Of a DNA stretch of 59,146 nt, positions 3,537-55,356 are shown in pieces. Location: IMG/VR virus record IMGVR_UViG_2029527005_000013; one strand, written 5' to 3'. Under the pieces are notes generated by a model that was not told where the DNA came from, made no database searches, and saw only the letters and a program-made list of their open reading frames with translations. The stretch's first letter is position 1, and every line of letters begins with the position of its first letter. The position numbers and the translations under genes were made by a program. Source of the DNA: a virus.

Positions 3537-3865
3537 CAGAGACAATTATCGCGTATAAGTTGTTTCGTGTGCGAAAGGATGGTACGATAGGCCCTCTGTT
3601 CATCAACAGGCCGCTTGTGGTGGTCCCTGGTGAGTGGATGGAGGCAGAGTGCCACCCGACTAAGGGCTTCGCCTTACGGCCCGGCTGGCACTGCACACTG
3701 GCCCCTGTAGCGCCTCATTTGAAGACGGACCTGAAGTCGGGGGAAGTCCGCAAGTGGTACAAGGTGGAAGTGCAGGGCATAACAACATTCCAGAGGCCGG
3801 AGTCCCAAGGTGGGACGTGGGTCCTGGCAGAAAGACTTCGTGTCGTGGAGGAAATCGATGTGTGA
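3533..3865 (+). CDS. Conserved phage hypothetical protein
   Basis: AYKLFR...PLFIN...GF..RPGWHC...RPESQGG.W.LA motif; ATGA coupling. Confidence 0.7.
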   Translation: MTETIIAYKLFRVRKDGTIGPLFINRPLVVVPGEWMEAECHPTKGFALRPGWHCTLAPVAPHLKTDLKSGEVRKWYKVEVQGITTFQRPESQGGTWVLAERLRVVEEIDV

Positions 3866-4535: not shown

Positions 4536-5918
4536 ATGTCTAACGTAACGAGCATTCTCGCAGAACTGGCAGCAACCCGATCCCTGAAGGAGAAGGAAGC
4601 GATCCTGCGGGCCAATGCGGACAACGAAGGTCTTAAACAAGCCTTCCAGATCGCATACTCCAAAGAACTGAACTTCTTTGTCCGTGGGATGAAGAACATG
4701 TACGAAGATAGTGTTGGCCTGCGACCGCTGGCAGACTCTATCAATGATCTGGTCGAGAACATCGCGTCCCGCCGCTTCACCGGGGACGACGCCAAGTCGT
4801 ATATGGAACAGTTGGTCGGCCTGTGTGCAGAGCCGGGCACACTGCTGCGAGTGATCAACCGCGACTTGGAGTGCGGCATCCAGACGACACTGACCAACAA
4901 GGTGTGGAAGGATCTGATCACGGAACCTCCGTATCAGAGCTACACCCTGTTCAAAGAAGATCTGCTGCGTAAGTTCGACTACAAGGGCGCTTTCTCCGAC
5001 GAGAAGATGGACGGCCTGTATGCTGACATCATGGTGTGGCCTGAGCAGGTGATCTACCGCTCCCGCTCCGGCAAGGAACTCAACTTCCGCGCCCCGGAGA
5101 ACGTTGAACGTGCGCTGATGAAGGCGGCAGTTGACGATGACGGCACAGCCAAGCCATATGTGGCACATGGTGAAGGTCTGGTTATTGATCCGAACGGCCT
5201 GCATGGTGTTATGGAACGTGCCGAGGGCAACGGCTACCTGAACCAAGACCCGGCAGACATCGATCGTAATCGTGTCCGGCTGGTGATCTGGGACCGTGTG
5301 ACAATGGACGAGTACATCGCCCGTAAGTCGAAGCGTCCATACAGTGAACGCCGCATGTCGGCGCAGGGCCTCGCCTGGTGGGTTGAAGATCCTGAGCACA
5401 TGCAGTTCGTTAAGGGCCGTCAGATCAATAGCCTCAAAGAGGCGATCGACCACTTTATCGAGATGCGTTTGCAGAAGAAAGAGGGCACCGTCCTCAAAGA
5501 AGCAAACATGCCGTGGGGCGACAACAAGACGAAGAAAGGCGTCAAGTTGAAGAACGAGTTCGATGTGGATCTGGTTGTGATCGGTACGACCCCGCACAAG
5601 AAAGATCCGGCGCTGGTCGGTTCACTGATCTGTCAAACTCGTGACGGCCTGCTGGAAGTCGGTGTTGGTTCCGGGCTTACCGATGCGCTTCGCAAGAAGC
5701 CAGCGGAGTATTTCATCGGGCAGATCATCACGATCAAGGCCAATGACATCACCAAGTCGGAAACCAAAGAGCTTCAGTCTCTGTTCCTGCCACGCCTGAA
5801 CTACAAGTTCGTGGAGATCCGCATGGACAAGACCGTGGCGAACAGCCTGGAAGAAGTGATCGAGGCATCTGATTCGTTGCTGGATCTGCTGCGGGCAATC
5901 GCGGAGGATCTGGAATGA
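4536..5918 (+). CDS. lig: ATP-dependent DNA ligase
   Basis: Motif I EKMDG, HGE, EGTVLK, KLK motif V, C-terminal OB fold VGSG...LFLP. Confidence 0.93.
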   Translation: MSNVTSILAELAATRSLKEKEAILRANADNEGLKQAFQIAYSKELNFFVRGMKNMYEDSVGLRPLADSINDLVENIASRRFTGDDAKSYMEQLVGLCAEPGTLLRVINRDLECGIQTTLTNKVWKDLITEPPYQSYTLFKEDLLRKFDYKGAFSDEKMDGLYADIMVWPEQVIYRSRSGKELNFRAPENVERALMKAAVDDDGTAKPYVAHGEGLVIDPNGLHGVMERAEGNGYLNQDPADIDRNRVRLVIWDRVTMDEYIARKSKRPYSERRMSAQGLAWWVEDPEHMQFVKGRQINSLKEAIDHFIEMRLQKKEGTVLKEANMPWGDNKTKKGVKLKNEFDVDLVVIGTTPHKKDPALVGSLICQTRDGLLEVGVGSGLTDALRKKPAEYFIGQIITIKANDITKSETKELQSLFLPRLNYKFVEIRMDKTVANSLEEVIEASDSLLDLLRAIAEDLE

Positions 5919-6355
5919 CGGGATTCTGGGTTGGGTTTATTCTCTTCCTTGTCCTTGTTGCTGCATGGCTATGGGACAAGTTTGTAACTCCACGGCGGGC
6001 CACCCGGCCCCCGGTGCTGAAGATCATGGAGTTGATTCAGGACGGGAAGACCTTCACCGTCTATGACAACCTATCTGCGGCTGACAGAAAAGCCTGTCCT
6101 ATGGCGGATTACGTTGTCATGGACAACGAGCGGAAGGTGAAGACCTACTTCTTCTGGGAAGTCTTCCACGAGGTCGCTATGGTAGAGGGCGATCTCGACT
6201 GGATGAATCAGCACGAGAAGGATCGTGTGTTCAAGGTTGTGTCCGGCATCTGTAGTGCCCGGTTCCGGGCCTGGCGTAAGGCCAGCGATCTGGAAAAAGC
6301 GGCCCGTGACGATAAGCGTCGTGACGAAGCCAAAAAGATTTACGAAAGTCGTTGA
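5915..6355 (+). CDS. Membrane-anchored hypothetical protein
   Basis: N-terminal TM helix; ATGA overlap with the ligase. Confidence 0.65.
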   Translation: MTGFWVGFILFLVLVAAWLWDKFVTPRRATRPPVLKIMELIQDGKTFTVYDNLSAADRKACPMADYVVMDNERKVKTYFFWEVFHEVAMVEGDLDWMNQHEKDRVFKVVSGICSARFRAWRKASDLEKAARDDKRRDEAKKIYESR

Positions 6356-6379
6356 CAGTGTACCGGGGTCATGTATAAT
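6352..6379 (+). promoter_or_regulatory. sigma70-like promoter, 16-bp-spacer class
   Basis: TTGACA-16-TATAAT. Confidence 0.7.
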
Positions 6380-6409
6380 GGCCCCACTGAAACAGAAAAG
6401 GAGAAGTTG

Positions 6410-6772
6410 ATGTCCCAGTTTATTAAAGATGCCATTCGTACCGAGTCCCACAATTTCTATCTGGACAACGTTGGCCCGCGCCTTATCCACGCCTCTATGG
6501 GCTTGGTAACCGAAGCGGCTGAGTTCCAAGATGCCCTGAAGAAGTCCCTGTTCTACGGCAAGCCGCTGGACACGACTAACCTGAAGGAAGAAATGGGCGA
6601 CCTGCTGTGGTATCTGGCGCTGGCGATGGATGCTCTGGAAACTGACTTCGACGCCGAGCAGGATCGTGTTATCCGCAAGCTGAAGGCTCGTTACCCGAGC
6701 AAATTCGAGAACGACCTGGCGGAAAACCGCGATCTGGCGACTGAACGTAAGATCCTGGAGACCGATAAGTAA
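6410..6772 (+). CDS. MazG-like NTP pyrophosphohydrolase
   Basis: GLVTEAAEF..LKK...LKEEMGDLLWY all-alpha NTP-PPase motif. Confidence 0.85.
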   Translation: MSQFIKDAIRTESHNFYLDNVGPRLIHASMGLVTEAAEFQDALKKSLFYGKPLDTTNLKEEMGDLLWYLALAMDALETDFDAEQDRVIRKLKARYPSKFENDLAENRDLATERKILETDK

Positions 6773-6948
6773 TGCCGCTGTACTCGTACAAATGCCCCGG
6801 CTGCGGGGCTGTCTTTGACCAGAATCGCAAGATTGCAGAACGTGAAACTGCCCCTTGCAAATGTGGCGAGACTGCTGTAAAGTCTTTATCCGCCCCTCGT
6901 GGCATTAAGAACGGGTATTTCGAGCAAGGCCGGATGTTCGTTCGATAG
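6772..6948 (+). CDS. FmdB-family zinc-ribbon protein (58 aa)
   Basis: MPLYSYKCPGCGAVF...PCKCG...LSAP; absent from the ORF track. Confidence 0.75.
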   Translation: MPLYSYKCPGCGAVFDQNRKIAERETAPCKCGETAVKSLSAPRGIKNGYFEQGRMFVR

Positions 6949-6961
6949 TTTCAAAAAGTTG

Positions 6962-6990
6962 TTGACGTACTGAAAATTACCGGGCATAAT
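6962..6990 (+). promoter_or_regulatory. sigma70 promoter
   Basis: TTGACG-17-CATAAT. Confidence 0.65.
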
Positions 6991-7023
6991 GCTCACACAT
7001 TCACTGAAGAGGAGTAACACACA

Positions 7024-7353
7024 ATGGCTAAAGTAGAACTGATCAAAACCCTGCCGTCTGACATCGAAACCCGTAAGCGCCTGGCAAACATCGTTCAGGA
7101 AGGCGTAGAAGCAGTACGTCGCCAGAAAGATGCGGCGCAGGACCTGAAAGATATTCTGGCAATCACCAAAGAAGACCTGAATATCGATCCGAAATTCCTG
7201 CGTACCCTGATCAACGGCGAATACGACAAGCAGGACGCCGCAGAGAAGAAACGTGCGGCGCTGGAAGACCAGATTGAGCAACTGAACGAACTGGACATCC
7301 TGATGGGCCGTGAGCGTGTCGAAGGCGAATCCATCGACGAAAACGGCGAGTAA
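7024..7353 (+). CDS. dsDNA-binding protein, T4 DsbA/GapR-like (tentative)
   Basis: Helical 109 aa protein with LKDIL...KEDLNIDPKFLRTLI pattern; strong codon bias; GAGGAG RBS. Confidence 0.5.
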   Translation: MAKVELIKTLPSDIETRKRLANIVQEGVEAVRRQKDAAQDLKDILAITKEDLNIDPKFLRTLINGEYDKQDAAEKKRAALEDQIEQLNELDILMGRERVEGESIDENGE

Positions 7354-7432
7354 TATTTAGTTCGGACTGTGCAGTAAGCCGCCCCATTAGGGGCGGATAA
7401 CCCTAAAATAATTGAGAAAGGAGATTTACACT

Positions 7433-7717
7433 ATGAATATCAACTTCAACGATGCTACCTTCGAAAAACTGCGTTTCCTGGCTGACCGTGAAGGTCGTTC
7501 CGTAGCCGCTTTCGTCTCCATGCGTATGGATGAACTGGCAGGCCAACTGGTCAACACCACGTTTACCCTGAACGCGGTCCCTGAAGGTGTTCAACTGGCG
7601 CATCTGGACCCGACCCCACGCCCGGCACCGACTGTCACCGACCGCGAGTTCGTTGACTACTCCCGCCTGAATCACCGCAGCGACAACAGCCGCCGCTACG
7701 CTGAAGACCAATACTAA
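7433..7717 (+). CDS. Ribbon-helix-helix DNA-binding protein
   Basis: MNINFNDATFEKLRFLADREGRSVAAFV RHH signature. Confidence 0.65.
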   Translation: MNINFNDATFEKLRFLADREGRSVAAFVSMRMDELAGQLVNTTFTLNAVPEGVQLAHLDPTPRPAPTVTDREFVDYSRLNHRSDNSRRYAEDQY

Positions 7718-7720
7718 AAG

Positions 7721-7748
7721 AACCGCCCTTCGGGGCGGTTTTTCTTTA
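7721..7748 (+). terminator. Rho-independent terminator
   Basis: ACCGCCC-TTCG-GGGCGGT + T tract. Confidence 0.9.
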
Positions 7749-7756
7749 TCTGCCTA

Positions 7757-7784
7757 TTGACTCCTGCCTCCACTCCTGTATACT
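7757..7784 (+). promoter_or_regulatory. sigma70-like promoter, 16-bp-spacer class
   Basis: TTGACT-16-TATACT. Confidence 0.7.
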
Positions 7785-7817
7785 ACTCCCATCAGACAAC
7801 GAAAGAGAGGAAATATC

Positions 7818-8324
7818 ATGTCAAATAATCTGTTCCTGAACCGTTTAGAGAAGTGGATCACCAATGTGTCAGTTTATCCGCCCGCAGAGCTTTACTTCCA
7901 GGCTCCAAAAAGCCAAGAGAAAAAAGAGAAGCGTTGCAAGGAGATCTGTGAGGCCCTGTATAAGTTCAACTGGGAAGGGGCCAAGTATCCAAACCCGATC
8001 GGAACCGTCCGCGAGATAGTCCGCGAGATGTGTGTGCTGGACAGGATGTTTGAGTACAACCCTTTCCCACCGAAGTACGAAAATATTGTAAAACTGGTTG
8101 CAAAGTTTGTGAATAATGCGGATAATCTTGTTGCGGCCTTGGATAAGATGCACGGGCAGAACGAACGGATGAAGGACTGGTACGATCACTGGAAGGTGGG
8201 TCAGTTGCGAATCCAGCTTCTCTCATACCGCTGGGGCGCGGATATTCTCCGTTTGGGGGATGACGACAAAGTGACAACCAAATTTATCGATGATGTTGAA
8301 CAGGCACAAAAGGAGATGAAATAA
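7818..8324 (+). CDS. Hypothetical protein
   Basis: 168 aa, GAGG RBS after the promoter. Confidence 0.7.
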   Translation: MSNNLFLNRLEKWITNVSVYPPAELYFQAPKSQEKKEKRCKEICEALYKFNWEGAKYPNPIGTVREIVREMCVLDRMFEYNPFPPKYENIVKLVAKFVNNADNLVAALDKMHGQNERMKDWYDHWKVGQLRIQLLSYRWGADILRLGDDDKVTTKFIDDVEQAQKEMK

Positions 8325-8545
8325 TGAGCGACACTAAAGCACTGGTTCTTGGTTTTGCACTGGGTTGCCTGATCACTGGCGTCCTGAACTTCTCTGCGGC
8401 ACATGCCGACCAGACGTTGGATCTGGAAGAGTCGTACCGCGACGGTGATTACACCGTCTGCATTTACAGCAACGGGCGTTCGTCTGCGGTGGTATACAAA
8501 GACGGCGCTGGTTCTTGCCCAAGCAAACACATTAAGAGGACCTGA
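8324..8545 (+). CDS. Small exported protein
   Basis: Signal peptide ending AHA|D; two Cys in the mature part. Confidence 0.6.
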   Translation: MSDTKALVLGFALGCLITGVLNFSAAHADQTLDLEESYRDGDYTVCIYSNGRSSAVVYKDGAGSCPSKHIKRT

Positions 8546-8546
8546 T

Positions 8547-8759
8547 ATGACTTACTTCAGACTGGTCACCGTAGACCGCTGCTGGCTTGAGATGGAGATT
8601 GCCAAGGGCACCATCTTCTACAAGCACTACAGCTTCGCCGATCCTGAGTGGGTCCCGTGCGGAGAATACCGTGAAGGACATGCAAGCTATGACCGCATGA
8701 GCGAGTGTGACGTGTTCAACATGATGAAACGAAGCAAAAACGTATACTGGAGGAACTGA
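8547..8759 (+). CDS. Hypothetical protein
   Basis: GAGGA RBS, coupled ORF. Confidence 0.55.
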   Translation: MTYFRLVTVDRCWLEMEIAKGTIFYKHYSFADPEWVPCGEYREGHASYDRMSECDVFNMMKRSKNVYWRN

Positions 8760-9133
8760 TGGCCTATTCAGAAGATAACGTACCAGACAATCTGCCGGAC
8801 GTTTGCTACAAGATCGCAGACTGGTGGGATGGTCGCAAGTTGCAGCGACGGATTGTGTGTGCCGCCAACCGCTTCCAGTTGAAAGACGGTGGTGTGTTGG
8901 TAATCCCAGGCTCTCGCCACTATTCGAAAGATATGGCTTTGGTTCTGGACCAACTTCGTGATAAAGTGGTAAGCGACCACGTGACTGGAGATGATCAAGG
9001 GTTCATCGACCAGTGGGGCGAGTACCACAATCGGGAAGACGCACTCATCATTGCCACTCACGCCGGACAGATTAACACCGTCCGTAAGAAGGGTGGCCCG
9101 GCGGACGAACTGTTCAGTGAGGATCTTTACTGA
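8759..9133 (+). CDS. Conserved phage hypothetical protein
   Basis: RIVCAANR...RHY...QGFIDQWG...R.DA...LFSEDLY motif common in myoviruses. Confidence 0.75.
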   Translation: MAYSEDNVPDNLPDVCYKIADWWDGRKLQRRIVCAANRFQLKDGGVLVIPGSRHYSKDMALVLDQLRDKVVSDHVTGDDQGFIDQWGEYHNREDALIIATHAGQINTVRKKGGPADELFSEDLY

Positions 9134-9327
9134 TGGAAAGAACAATAACCGTCCCGGCGAACCTGATTGCAGAACTTATGCCGTACCTTGAAGAGGGTAT
9201 GCAGGTAGTGGCTGACCGCATGGGTATGGCGGGCCACACACCATCAGAACAAATGGGTGACGACTATGATCGTCTCGAAACACTGAAATCGATGCTCCAA
9301 GAGGAGGATTACAAATGGAAACCGTAA
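9133..9327 (+). CDS. Hypothetical protein
   Basis: TGATG coupling. Confidence 0.55.
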   Translation: MERTITVPANLIAELMPYLEEGMQVVADRMGMAGHTPSEQMGDDYDRLETLKSMLQEEDYKWKP

Positions 9328-9653
9328 GCATTGAAGTATTCGCGGTAGAGATGTCGAAAGCGGTTGGCTTCCGCAAGATGGAACCGACTGGCCCGGCGGG
9401 CCTTCGCTTTGGCCTGTATCTCCCGGCAAGAAGTGAGTCCCTGATCCGTTATGGTCAGTTGGTGGATATTCTCGATACGCACCTGATCGATAGTCCACTG
9501 TTCCCGTGGAAGATTTCTTATGTCCACATCAACGAAGGCGATTATAAAGAAGATTCGAGCATTCTGCTGGCGCAGTATCTCCCGGAACTTCCTTTGGCGG
9601 CAGACTGCCGGATCAGTTGCCCAGCATCACTAATCTATGGGGCCGGACTATGA
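9315..9653 (+). CDS. Hypothetical protein
   Basis: GGAGG RBS. Confidence 0.55.
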   Translation: METVSIEVFAVEMSKAVGFRKMEPTGPAGLRFGLYLPARSESLIRYGQLVDILDTHLIDSPLFPWKISYVHINEGDYKEDSSILLAQYLPELPLAADCRISCPASLIYGAGL

Positions 9654-9850
9654 AAGCGATAATTGTAGGTGGGTTGTATGTACTGTTCATAATCTTCATT
9701 GCCTGCCTTATTCCGGCGGTGATGATCCCAGTGTTCCAAGACCTTGGTCTATATGCCCGAGATGTCGTTGGGTTTACCCTGGTCATAACGCTTATCGCCG
9801 TGATACTCCTGATGGGGTTCGGGGCATTGATCTGGAGTGTGCTGTCATGA
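9650..9850 (+). CDS. Two-TM membrane protein
   Basis: Two hydrophobic helices; ATGA coupling. Confidence 0.6.
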   Translation: MKAIIVGGLYVLFIIFIACLIPAVMIPVFQDLGLYARDVVGFTLVITLIAVILLMGFGALIWSVLS

Positions 9851-10044
9851 AAGTAATCCACCCACTAACCAGCCAGATGGCCCCGATCCAGCATGTTCTC
9901 CGGGATCTCGCAAGTCAAGAGAACTGCGACGGTGAGCCATACGACCAGATGGTCCAAGCGGCTGACCACATCGACGACCTGGAGTACCGCTTAGAGTTCT
10001 TCCGGGAAAAATACAACCGACTTGCAGGGGAGTTTTGCGTATGA
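9847..10044 (+). CDS. Hypothetical protein
   Basis: GGAG RBS, ATGA coupling. Confidence 0.55.
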   Translation: MKVIHPLTSQMAPIQHVLRDLASQENCDGEPYDQMVQAADHIDDLEYRLEFFREKYNRLAGEFCV

Positions 10045-21503: not shown

Positions 21504-22601
21504 ATGTCTTACAGCACTTTCAACCAGAACGATTTCGACTTCATGACTCAACCGATGTTCTTTGGTGAGACACCGAACGTTTCTCGCTATGATAAGCAGA
21601 AGCATAAGAAATTTGAGACACTGATCGAGAAGCAACTGGCATTCTTCTGGCGTCCTGAAGAGATCAACGTGTCAAAGGACCGTATCGACTATCAGAACCT
21701 GCCGGAACACGAGAAGCACATCTTCATCAGCAACCTGAAGTATCAGATCCTGCTGGATTCCGTACAAGGCCGTGGCCCGAACGCAGTTCTGCTGCCGATT
21801 GTATCCGACCCGACACTGGAGACGTGGGTAGAAACGTGGGCATTCAGTGAGACGATCCACAGTCGTTCTTACACCCACATCATCCGTAACATTCTGGCAG
21901 ATCCATCGATCGTATTCGATGACATCATGCAATCGCCGGAGATTATCGCCCGCGCCGAGGCGGTTACCGGGATGTACGACACACTGTACGAACTGAACTG
22001 CAAGAAGGCCCTCGGGATGAAGGTGGACGAGTACACCCACGCCCGCGCCCTGTATCTGTGCCTGCACAACATCAATGCACTGGAGGCAATCCGCTTCTAT
22101 GTGAGCTTCGCCTGTTCCTTTGCGTTCGGTGAGCGCGGTCTGATGACCGGGAACACCAACATCATTGAGTTAATTGCTCGTGATGAAGCCTTGCATTTGT
22201 CCGGCACTCAGTATATGCTGAAAGAAATGCAGAACGGTAACGAGGGTGACCTCTTTGCCCGTGTTGCGGAAGACTGCTACGACGAAGCCCGCCAGGGATT
22301 CATTGATGCAGCCAATCAAGAGAAAGATTGGGGCGGCTTCCTGTTCAAGGACGGCTCCATGATTGGACTGAACGGCGGTATGCTGAACGGCTATGTGGAT
22401 TACATCACTGACCAGCGTATGCGAGCAGTTGGTCTGGGGCCGTTCACCGAGAAGCCGGGTAAAAACCCGATCCCTTGGATCAACAGCCACCTGTCCACTG
22501 GTAACGTTCAGGTAACACCGCAGGAAATTGAGAATGGACAATATCTGTCTGGTCAGGTAGACTCCTCAATGACTGCTGCCGATTTCAACTTCGACCTGTA
22601 A
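21504..22601 (+). CDS. nrdB: Ribonucleotide reductase class Ia beta subunit
   Basis: [36 protein letters not shown] di-iron motifs. Confidence 0.97.
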
Positions 22602-47060: not shown

Positions 47061-47082
47061 AGCCGCCTCCGGGCGGCTTTTT
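47061..47082 (+). terminator. Rho-independent terminator ending the rightward block
   Basis: AGCCGCC-TCCG-GGCGGCTTTTT. Confidence 0.85.
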
Positions 47083-47169
47083 GTTATGTTCGCTCCACAA
47101 TATTGACTGCCTAAAGAGTCCCACTTGAGCCTTGCCTGAAGTGGCGAACCTGTTCATAACTCCCTCCGC

Positions 47170-47178
47170 TTATCCACA
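47170..47178 (+). promoter_or_regulatory. DnaA box (perfect TTATCCACA)
   Basis: Exact R1/R4 consensus in non-coding DNA; near-matches at about 47190 and 47240. Confidence 0.4.
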
Positions 47179-47506
47179 GTACGACATCCCTTTCCACAGT
47201 TTAAAGTCTAACCTATACCTTCACCCAGAGTGAATCTTTTTCCCCACACAGGTAAACCAGACAGCCTATGAGGCGACCCTGTTAGTAACTCCACGGGTTT
47301 CTTGCCCACGATACAGCCTTTGCCCTGCCGGAGGCGACCCTCTTTTTCTTCCCGAAATACCTCCCGCCAAAATTTTTGGAACGTGATCAGGGGTGGGGTG
47401 TCTTGCCCAGAAACCAGAAAAATATCCCAGCGTATGGATACTGCTGCCAGGCATGGCGAACAGGGGGAGGGAGGGGCACCTGTTATTTTCCCCAAATATC
47501 CATAAG

Positions 47507-47519
47507 AATCAATGAGTTA
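47507..47519 (+). promoter_or_regulatory. IHF consensus site
   Basis: AATCAATGAGTTA matches WATCAANNNNTTR. Confidence 0.55.
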
Positions 47520-48071
47520 GCCTTTCCGGCTCCTTGCTCTTTGCGTACAGGATCGGCCCTCCTGGGATGTGACCTTGCCCACACTTTATGATGAATGATC
47601 CATAACTTTACACTTCCACCATTGACAACCTGCCCCCGGTGTGCCTCTCCCACTGATACCCATTTAACATAATACACCTTATACGCACTGACTGGAATGA
47701 TAATCATTCGCATCAGGCCAGCCGGGCCGGGGCTTGGTCCCACATGAGAATGCTTCTCGTTTACGCTTGCGAGTGAGACGCATTACCCCGTTGTTGGGAA
47801 TCATTCGCAGATGAGAACGGTTCTCGTTTGGCACAGCAAAAAGCAAAATAAAAATAAAATTGTCTTGACAAGGAGACCGTATTTTGTCTAGCAATTACAT
47901 GCTTTTCTGTACACTTTGCGAACGATAATCATTCTCGTTTGGGGACACTCCCCCTACGGGGTCGCCTCTTCAGGTGATTTTCTATGCAGATAAAACACGC
48001 CTTTATGCAGATAAGAATCATTCTCAACAACTAAAAAGTTGTTGACAATAGCGCTTTTATTACTACGTAAT

Positions 48072-48237
48072 GACCAATAGAAAACAGGTGAAAAACGGTT
48101 AGGGATAGCGTAGCGGTCATCCCTTGACCGTGGGAACGTGAGCAAAAACCGTTGCGAGTTAGCAACGGGGGTTGATCCGTTACCTGTTTTCTATTGGTCG
48201 CGCCTCCGGCGCGCCCTCCCTTGATCCGTGGGAACGT
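48072..48237. ncRNA. Candidate structured ncRNA or DNA secondary-structure element
   Basis: Perfect 18-bp inverted repeat (48072-48089/48182-48199) enclosing two hairpins; direct repeat CCCTTGA(T)CCGTGGGAACGT. Confidence 0.45.
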
Positions 48238-48270
48238 AAACCCGGCTTTTGTCAGAAGTCAATAAAAAGA

Positions 48271-48283
48271 TAAGTTATTGATT
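48271..48283 (-). promoter_or_regulatory. IHF consensus site
   Basis: AATCAATAACTTA on the minus strand. Confidence 0.55.
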
Positions 48284-48618
48284 GTAAATGAGAATCATTC
48301 TCGCATTATGCAGATAAATGAATAAATAGTGTCAAGTTATGTAAAGAAAATGGATGATTGACCGGATCGGCCTGATACACGTTTGCAGATAGAAGTCAAT
48401 AGGGGCTAAAAGCTCCTGTAAGGCCCTATGCGGGCCGCTACTCTCAACCCTGGCTAGTGGGTTAGCGCCTCGTTTATTCAATTATGCGCTTTAAAGTGAA
48501 TAAAATTAGATGTTGATTTCCACAATTGGAAGTGATAAGGGGGGATATGCTGGGGGGAGTCAGACCGATACCGGGAACGGGTAGCGCCTGCCAGGCTTGC
48601 CACGTTAGGATCTGCGGG

Positions 48619-48645
48619 CAAAGAAAAGCCCGGACTATGCCGGGC
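48619..48645 (-). terminator. Terminator ending the leftward early block
   Basis: GCCCGG-CATAGT-CCGGGC + TTTTCTTT on the minus strand. Confidence 0.8.
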
Positions 48646-48660
48646 GGTCATTTGGTTGGC

Positions 48661-48867
48661 TCACATTAGCCGGAAGTCGTCAACGGTCATTTCTAATCGG
48701 TGAATTAGGTATTCCAGGCTATCGGCATGGAATGATTCGGTGTAACCATCGTTCCCGATCTGCACAGTGGCAAGGATCAGGCCGTTTTCCTGCTCTTTGA
48801 TTTGGACGGCTAAACGGTTTGCCTTTGCATCATTCAGGACGGAGATCAAGCGGTTGGCGGTTGTCAT
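48661..48867 (-). CDS. Early hypothetical protein
   Basis: AGGAG RBS, own promoter at 48898-48925. Confidence 0.65.
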   Translation of the reverse strand: MTTANRLISVLNDAKANRLAVQIKEQENGLILATVQIGNDGYTESFHADSLEYLIHRLEMTVDDFRLM

Positions 48868-49798: not shown

Positions 49799-50186
49799 TT
49801 TACTGGCTCCTGATTTGTGGGCTTGCCCCATTGCTTGCCCTACGTGATGAATATTATGCTTTTCCCGGCGTTGCGTCTAGTCCCTTTACGTTTCTTTACA
49901 AAACTAACCAAGACGGCGATACTGTATAAATGTACATGGCTTTTAAACGCTCTGTAAGGCCCTCTAAGCGCTTTTAGGCTGAAAGTGTACCCTAACCCGT
50001 TTTAAGGGAGATCTCACTAATGAGAATTTTTCTCACCTACGTTTTGGGGCTTTTTGATAGGTAAATGCTATCATCCTGAATAGCGGGCAGGTCCGGTGGT
50101 TGTCTCCCCCTGTCCCCAGGTGCCCGCCGTCCAAAAAGAATAACAAAAAAGGGGCGAACAAGTCAACCCCTGTAAACACTGTTAAT

Positions 50187-55174: not shown

Positions 55175-55356
55175 GGCATCGGCTCCACTTCAGGCGATGG
55201 GATACACGCCGGATTAATCCACTTGGGATCTAAACGATAATCATTCGCAACAATCTCACAGGTCAATTGATCATCGTATGATTCGATCACGTAGTCATCG
55301 CAACGTGTCGCCATACCTGCAACATATAAGCACATCCCGGCGAAAACTTCAAACAT
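55171..55356 (-). CDS. Early Cys-containing hypothetical protein
   Basis: GAGGG RBS. Confidence 0.55.
   Translation of the reverse strand: MFEVFAGMCLYVAGMATRCDDYVIESYDDQLTCEIVANDYRLDPKWINPACIPSPEVEPMP

Follow-up and report, generated by a model that had tools for sequence, protein, structure and literature searches.

Arrays of Fur-Type Boxes in a Conserved Gene-Free Hub of a Large Virulent Enterobacterial Phage

An Array of Palindromes between Convergent Gene Blocks

The DNA considered here is a window of 59,146 nucleotides from the IMG/VR virus record IMGVR_UViG_2029527005_000013 (bases 52843–111988 of a 152,940-bp record with 51.8% G+C), in which an array of palindromes resembling the operators of the host iron repressor Fur occupies positions 47693–48308. 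Positions are those of the window unless the genome is named. By megablast, the closest relatives are Certrevirus phages of the Vequintavirinae, i.e., phiTE, CR3, CR8, CR9, DU_PP_I, POP15, F1M1E, and KaOmega, whose hosts are Pectobacterium, Cronobacter, Enterobacter, and Klebsiella and to which the conserved parts are about 84% identical. The source is a large virulent enterobacterial phage, Certrevirus-like in kind.

The array lies within a gene-free zone of 1.5 kb (about 47130–48660), between two convergent gene blocks: the small genes of the plus strand end to its left, with a terminator at 47061, and those of the minus strand end to its right, with a terminator at 48645. This gene layout was taken from the annotation of the relatives, the greedy map of open reading frames (ORFs) being too noisy at 52% G+C. 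An earlier note, made from the letters of the window alone, had claimed that no credible protein gene follows the palindromes, and this is borne out. Neither the five ORFs of 63–95 amino acids in 47208–48145 nor the ORF of 57 amino acids at 48478–48651 has a PHROG match, the flanking gene at 48661–48867 does have one, and the equivalent gap is annotated as empty in phiTE, CR8, CR9, DU_PP_I, and POP15. A search of Rfam at a permissive threshold returned a spurious Trp-leader at a terminator as its sole match, and no tRNA was found. With 47.7% G+C, the array region is somewhat AT-richer than the genome. The note had also stated that the phage encodes NrdB, and the gene is located at 21597–22445.

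Six Boxes at the Level of Validated Host Operators

We built a 19-position Fur matrix from 12 E. coli K-12 promoters (fepA-fes, fepD-entS, fepB-entC, fhuA, cirA, fiu, tonB, exbB, fur, fhuF, fhuE, and fecA), which were picked before any phage sequence was scored. Its consensus is GCAAATGAGAATAATTATC, so that GAGAAT is the normal hexamer at the centre of genuine E. coli sites. The true K-12 training sites score 8.9–21.8 bits when each is left out in turn, and six further known operators (sufA, mntH, ryhB, sodA, gpmA, and fecI) score 14.8–21.1 bits. Six boxes of the array reach 14.4–21.6 bits, i.e., the level of validated E. coli operators (Table 1). The earlier note had counted seven Fur-box-like sites here; all seven palindromes are indeed present where it had placed them, and its figure of 14 bases out of 19 shared between the first one and the classic Fur box is correct. 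Only the seventh, at 47795–47809, falls short as a Fur box by the matrix, and at its place the relatives carry GAGAATGGTT(A/G)TC. The eighth site, announced near 50019, is also there and holds its position in relatives.

Table 1. Features of the gene-free hub and further Fur-like sites in the window (scores in bits from the 19-position Fur matrix)
Feature	Position	Strand	Sequence and remarks
dif-like XerC/XerD core	47662–47689	-	AGTGCGTATAA-GGTGTA-TTATGTTAAAT; 24/28 identical to E. coli dif
Fur box 1	47693–47717		core GATAATCATTCGC; 15.8 bits, second match 9.8 bits offset by 6 bp
Fur box 2	47740–47764		core GAGAATGCTTCTC; 17.2 and 11.4 bits; position kept in relatives
Weak palindrome (third site of the earlier note)	47795–47809		TGGGAATCATTCGCA; core with 2 mismatches; <8 bits
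Fur box 3	47807–47831		core GAGAACGGTTCTC; 14.2 and 14.4 bits
Candidate promoter P1	47836–47895	+	A-tract, then TTGACA (47866–47871); weak −10
Fur box 4	47918–47942		CCAAACGAGAATGATTATC on the - strand; 21.1 and 16.5 bits
Fur box 5	48007–48031		GCAGATAAGAATCATTCTC; 17.3 bits
Candidate promoter P2	48042–48072	+	TTGACA/TTGACT; weak −10
Conserved structured element	48069–48260		long outer stem, covarying inner stem, direct repeat CCCTTGAYCCGTGGGAACGT
Fur box 6	48284–48308		GTAAATGAGAATCATTCTC; 21.6 bits; inside an 80-nucleotide, nearly invariant block
Solitary Fur box (eighth site of the earlier note)	50016–50040		15.5 and 11.3 bits
Weaker Fur-like site	55230–55254		CTAAACGATAATCATTCGC; 12.7 bits; not conserved in CR8 or phiTE

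The note had proposed to score the sites against shuffled controls. In the 1.5-kb region, six sites reach at least 14 bits versus 0.04 expected (1000 dinucleotide shuffles, largest 1) and, in the whole genome, 15 loci do so versus 1.44 ± 1.2 (100 dinucleotide shuffles). The density of sites is 4.2 per kb in two hubs, i.e., the present one and a second gene-free hub described below, and 0.04 per kb in the rest of the genome. A plain search for the core GAGAATNATTCTC with at most two mismatches gave 13 matches in the window, of which seven fall in 47699–48302; shuffled sequence yielded 2.5 ± 1.5 (largest 6). The whole genome holds 17 such matches, the additional ones clustering at genome 113931–114007, in the second gene-free gap. 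Conversely, when the phage consensus TGAGAATNATTCTCA is searched with at most two mismatches, it finds 32 places in K-12 versus 5 for the reversed control, and annotation identifies six of these 32 as the operators of sufA, mntH, ryhB, sodA, fecI, and gpmA.

The likeness extends beyond the core. The matrix finds paired matches in each phage box, exactly 6 bp apart and on opposite strands, and this overlapping 6-bp-offset arrangement is typical of Fur clusters (Chen 2007, PMC2189734). When sites were picked by the 13-mer core only, in six phage genomes, their outer six bases were found to fit positions 1–6 of the matrix (GnAAAT), far better than does the sequence 24–30 bases away (Mann-Whitney p = 3e-12). 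Box 4 and the E. coli mntH operator agree in all 19 bases (19/19). We considered that it could be a captured host mntH operator and rejected this, because its flanks are unrelated (11/60 identical), which points to convergent evolution of a Fur-type site.

Chromosomal Fur operators of Enterobacterales (ryhB, mntH, fhuF, fepA-fes, and fecI) thus share with the phage boxes the motif, the 6-bp paired matches, and the score range. Unlike them, the phage boxes are found in gene-free DNA of a virulent phage, mostly off recognisable promoters and with no iron gene downstream. They also stand close together: six boxes in 615 bp, whereas for the entire K-12 genome 42 clusters are listed in which a site exceeds 17 bits (Chen 2007, PMC2189734). 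We found no Fur-family gene (PF01475) in the phage.

Conservation of the Boxes in Certreviruses

All seven Certrevirus relatives possess four to seven boxes of at least 12 bits in the homologous gap, and most of them also have the solitary downstream box. In an eight-genome alignment, boxes 1, 2, 3, and 6 hold their position, whereas boxes 4 and 5 turn over, the lost boxes being replaced by new ones. The core of box 1 is invariant in this alignment, and the position of box 3 scores 15.0–17.9 bits in all relatives. Box 4 is lineage-specific: phiTE and DU_PP_I have an insertion with a different box, of 24.6 bits. At the place of box 5, six of the seven relatives carry a box of differing sequence (14.9–19.6 bits), and CR9 has none of at least 12 bits there. 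The counterpart of the solitary box, of 21–23 bits, lies between homologous genes in CR8, F1M1E, CR9, POP15, and DU_PP_I. Between the source phage and CR8, the box cores are 79% identical and the spacers 50% (Fisher p = 3e-4), and this pattern indicates that the box motif is under purifying selection. As for the weaker site at 55230–55254, it may be a chance match, and so may the solitary matrix matches at genome positions 47542, 102269, 108072, 111070, and 124738, none of which is conserved in CR8 or phiTE.

Similar Arrays in Other Phage Lineages

Beyond the window, we compared the whole genomes of phiTE, CR8, rV5, PVP-SE1, and phi92. PVP-SE1 carries five boxes in a gene-free convergent gap of 2.27 kb. 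In rV5, the 'non-coding' box drawn between genes 163 and 164 was shown as ORF-free only, iron not being discussed (Kropinski 2013, PMC3606486); this gap is the homologous counterpart, within the subfamily, of the gene-free hub, and it carries a dif-like site with perfect arms as well as Fur-like boxes, which are fewer and weaker than in the source phage. The phage phi92, which belongs to another subfamily and has 37% G+C, contains a convergent gap of 815 bp in which five boxes take up no more than 115 bp, and each of its 343-bp terminal repeats carries two boxes of 22–23 bits. A blastn search with the phi92 array matched 426 of 50,697 phage records, T5-like phages and the jumbo phage RaK2 among them. 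In RaK2, five boxes stand within 115 bp, and another three, the best of 24.3 bits, are located inside a gene-free gap of 1.5 kb or slightly past its edge. Small early genes close to the arrays are common to rV5, phi92, and RaK2.

In T5 (AY543070), six boxes of 13.8–22.1 bits are located within 170 bp, at 9549–9718, inside the annotated injection stop signal, with DnaA boxes and a perfect LexA box (about 1785–1804 of the T5 segment) as neighbours. These palindromes have long been published. In the T5 preprint of Davison, palE-palJ and the DRC repeats are listed as conserved elements for which there is no explanation, and neither Fur nor iron is mentioned (10.1101/866236). It is these DRC and palE-palJ repeats that score as Fur boxes here. 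This 'Repeat Region 3' has the same Fur-type boxes in a conserved gene-free region with other host-factor sites. The settings differ in the rest: the T5 array is part of a terminal repeat at the boundary of first-step transfer, beside DnaA boxes, and the Certrevirus hub is a convergent junction beside a dif-like site, without DnaA-box pairs (the sole consensus DnaA box near it is at 47170). Only the Fur-box array is common to both. A separate search of IMG/VR for MetJ boxes, as exact doubles or triples, returned five operators, all single and unrelated, which says little about T5 relatives.

Apart from hosts with a conserved Fur, the lineages with arrays have little in common, and no other argument speaks as strongly for the host protein as the ligand. 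Together with the operator-level scores, the fit of the outer hexamer, and the selection on the motif, it strongly supports the identification of the boxes as Fur-type operators, as the earlier note had proposed. From their sequences, the sites are Fur-type, selected, and specific to the hubs. That Fur binds the sites of the array is, in our judgement, very probable, and the phage probably recruits or soaks up Fur. The cis-element as such is known; its setting here is new and apparently has not been described. Indeed, our literature searches found no paper tying Certrevirus to Fur and no Fur boxes described in a lytic phage genome; the sole phage box encountered is an ordinary one, upstream of the sitABCD cargo operon of temperate lambdoid phages. 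This agrees with the statement of the note that no such array had been described for a lytic phage, the function of the published T5 palindromes having been left unexplained.

Other Elements of the Hub and a Second Hub

The array is adjoined by a dif-like XerC/XerD core, compared here with a reference dif sequence that we verified in K-12 at 1590750. Its XerD arm is identical at 11 of 11 bases and its centre measures 6 bp. The 28-base block is invariant in eight Certreviruses, and copies occur in the equivalent gaps of rV5 (perfect arms) and PVP-SE1 (one mismatch). The XerC arm faces the Fur boxes, box 1 adjoining the core: its best match starts 10 bp from this arm, the distance being 4 bp in CR8 and phiTE, and in Certrevirus the starts of boxes 1–3 are found at 4–10, 57–93, and 124–134 bp, respectively. 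The boxes of PVP-SE1 are also on the XerC side, and the nearest box of rV5 is about 4 bp from the XerD arm. No convincing dif-like site was found in the whole phi92 genome, nor near the arrays in the T5 and RaK2 segments. Such a site is unexpected in strictly lytic phages, and its presence beside the array suggests that the host XerCD also acts on these genomes.

The organization recalls the plasmid Xer sites cer (ArgR/PepA) and psi (ArcA/PepA), in which sites for host regulators occupy about 150 bp flanking a XerC-XerD core on its XerC side, as here. In Certrevirus the regulator boxes at +4 to +134 bp on this side are Fur boxes, and the accessory stretch of cer and psi covers about 180 bp. 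Unlike at cer and psi, the regulator would be Fur, for which no role as an accessory factor of Xer is known; moreover, the rV5 arrangement differs.

Two candidate promoters, P1 and P2, stand among the boxes. The A-tract and TTGACA of P1 are conserved in eight genomes, with TAGCAA or AGGCAA as −10, and the −35 of P2 is conserved in the alignment, with TACGTA or TAACAA as −10. Because the −10 is not conserved in either case, we rejected them as canonical sigma-70 promoters and do not call them promoters. Box 6, as read from the sequence, overlaps promoter-like hexamers on both strands (TTGTAA-16-CATTAT on the plus strand and TTGACA-19-CATAAT on the minus strand). Between boxes 5 and 6 lies the structured element of 190 bases, whose inner stem shows compensatory variants, i.e., cgttgc/gcaacg, ctttgc/gcaaag, cggcgc/gcgccg, and attttgc/gcaaaat. 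RNAalifold gives nearly equal values for the two strands (−69.1 for plus and −66.4 for minus), and the element has no match in Rfam. The hub also contains repeats of TATGCAGATAA.

Repeats of (T)ATGCAGATAA, at 47984, 48005, and 48308 (with a variant at 48385), flank boxes 5 and 6 and are conserved in relatives. A nine-base resemblance to pseudo-ToxI at 47966 was set aside: the phiTE paper states no coordinates for this element, no ToxI-like repeat could be seen by eye in the phiTE counterpart, and we make no claim on it.

The second gene-free hub is located outside the window, at genome 113261–114590 (61748 being its last base and 60419 its first in window numbering). It starts its series of elements with a TTTGTAAAGAAACGTAAAGG motif, after which come a sigma-70 promoter of good quality, then a hairpin, then three Fur boxes spaced 29 bp apart (24.0, 16.8, and 19.4 bits), and last iteron-like GATC-rich repeats. 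The repeats after the boxes are GATCGAGAAC, GAATACGAT, and ATTTTGAAAATGA, accompanied by two perfect inverted repeats of 12 bp. This hub looks like an origin. The convergent gap of phi92 has the same order of elements.

What the Array May Do

In our favoured reading, the palindromes would be operators of the host Fe2+-loaded Fur repressor, and not relics or sites for a phage protein, and they would form a control hub together with the dif-like XerCD site, the promoter-like elements, and the structured element. In iron-replete cells, Fur dimers would occupy the array, and what happens at the hub, i.e., non-coding transcription started at its promoters and the accessibility of the adjoining XerCD site, would then hinge on the iron of the host. 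The selected role would be this iron-dependent gating. Sequestration of Fur would be its consequence, itself possibly useful to the phage, because with about 10–13 strong boxes per genome the replicating genomes would necessarily also draw Fur from host operators. Taken as a whole (genuine high-affinity Fe2+-Fur operators in a conserved gene-free control hub, with gating as the selected role), we hold this reading tentatively and put it somewhat below an even chance. It is consistent with the promoter-hairpin-boxes order common to the phi92 hub and to the second hub of the source phage, with the location of box 6 within promoter-like hexamers in an invariant block, and with the box next to the dif-like core, which is 4–10 bp away in Certrevirus and about 4 bp away in rV5.

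Several observations weigh against it. Most boxes are off any recognisable −35 or −10, box 6 alone overlapping promoter-like hexamers, and 83% of E. coli Fur clusters overlap a −35 or a −10 (Chen 2007, PMC2189734). Neither P1 nor P2 has a conserved −10, and the structured element folds nearly equally well on both strands. The phage boxes favour the symmetric GAGAAT..ATTCTC, and a C at position 17 is rare in the training set (one of the 12 sites), which leaves some room for a ligand other than Fur with a related specificity. If the DNA of these phages is modified, binding could be altered. Blocking the hub under plentiful iron has no obvious benefit for the phage. Of the roles proposed in the earlier note (a Fur sponge, an iron-sensing switch, or control of an ncRNA, DNA entry, or packaging), DNA entry has an argument against it in the Certrevirus lineage: genomes of the phiTE type are circularly permuted (PMC3475682).

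There are several rival explanations. The array could be a pure Fur sponge, in which the boxes titrate Fur as genomes multiply and their position relative to promoters is irrelevant. Host iron uptake, RyhB-mediated iron sparing, and nrdHIEF would then be derepressed and would feed the iron-dependent ribonucleotide reductase of the phage, whose genome does encode NrdB. The boxes stand at the top of the predicted affinity scale and are packed 17–50 bp apart; their number is maintained while individual sites turn over; most are not at promoters; and the arrays settle in any gene-free DNA of each lineage, which in T5 and phi92 means also the terminal repeats, themselves duplicated. For the Fur titration assay (FURTA), a single box suffices if it is carried by a multicopy plasmid, and the Fur pool of E. 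coli amounts to roughly 5,000–10,000 monomers. With 13 boxes per genome and 2–4 monomers per box, about 100 genomes would take up Fur of the same order as this pool. In FURTA as with the phage array, many strong boxes per cell are expected to pull Fur off host operators; the FURTA copies, however, are a plasmid artefact of the laboratory, whereas those of the phage would come from replication, perhaps under selection for the effect. Yet four of the six boxes hold their exact positions in eight genomes, in a hub with other conserved elements, and a sponge needs neither. Any effect would also come late, since one infecting genome cannot titrate Fur, and derepressed TonB-dependent receptors could invite superinfection. 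We regard the pure sponge as rather unlikely. Distinctly unlikely, in our view, is that Fur, or any abundant host repressor, is used structurally as an architectural landing pad and not as an iron signal. Boxes 1–3 would then be accessory sequences on the XerC side, as ArgR/PepA sites are at cer and ArcA/PepA sites at psi, or the array would be a roadblock or an insulator at the convergent junction, or at the injection stop of T5. The core with 24 of 28 dif bases, invariant in the genus, and the boxes spaced along its XerC side, in PVP-SE1 too, point this way, and so do the convergence of two transcription blocks at the hub and the location of the T5 array, within the injection stop as annotated and with DnaA boxes and a LexA box next to it. 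It accounts poorly, however, for phi92, whose genome has no convincing dif-like site, for the T5 and RaK2 arrays, near which none was found in the segments examined, and for rV5, whose nearest box is on the XerD side.

Another possibility is that the ligand is not Fur, but a phage protein or another host protein of Fur-like specificity, e.g., an iteron-binding replication initiator or an early repressor. The phage consensus (GAGAAT-N-ATTCTC) is indeed more symmetric than that of E. coli, the boxes of the second hub are 29-bp tandem units beside iteron-like repeats, and rV5, phi92, and RaK2 have in common the small early genes near their arrays. Such a ligand would nevertheless have to explain a match of up to 24 bits, outer hexamer included, to an independently trained Fur matrix, and an identical motif in phage families that otherwise share little, at 34–52% G+C locally or genome-wide. 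No Fur-family gene was found in the phage, no DNA-binding domain in the tested genes beside the arrays of phi92, RaK2, and the source phage, and Fur would bind such sites anyway, all of which makes this explanation very unlikely. As for chance or promoter debris, i.e., AT-rich, −10-like sequences without selected function, the resemblance of GATAAT and GAGAAT to −10 hexamers and the lower G+C of the region could suggest it, but it is refuted by the shuffles (six sites versus 0.04) and by a motif that is conserved over diverged spacers and recurs across lineages; we leave it hardly any probability.

More broadly, one may propose that large virulent enterobacterial phages of at least four lineages (rV5-like, phi92-like, T5-like, and RaK2-like) carry arrays of top-affinity Fur operators as a DNA-level weapon or sensor. 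Their replicating genomes would be a Fur sink rewiring host iron and the supply of ribonucleotide reductase; or else Fur would be the host factor still missing at the T5 injection stop, or an accessory of Xer recombination at a phage dif site. In this general form the proposal is rather unlikely. If Fur binds, these phages would read or change the iron status of their host by DNA alone, without a protein. Viruses would then have a novel means of interfering with the regulation of their hosts, and this would be relevant to phage therapy where tissues are poor in iron. At the injection stop of T5, the unexplained palindromes carry the same motif, and an old question thereby becomes experimentally approachable.

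Additional Observations around the Boxes

A LexA-box-like sequence, CTGTATAAATGTACAT (CTGT-N8-ACAT), is found at 49922–49937, about 80 bp from the solitary Fur box. The motif TTTGTAAAGAAAYGTAAAG occurs directly upstream of sigma-70-type promoters near Fur boxes, at 49883–49901 on the minus strand and at genome 113821–113839 on the plus strand; it is common to phi92 (about 137205–137222, minus strand), and a degenerate copy, TTATGTAAAGAAAATGG, follows box 6 at 48333–48349. To the left of the array, the stretch ccagaaa...ctgccaggcatggcgaa...ggggagggagggg at 47400–47480 is conserved with phiTE (3755–3835 of the phiTE segment), where a gene for an HNH endonuclease is inserted beside its copy.

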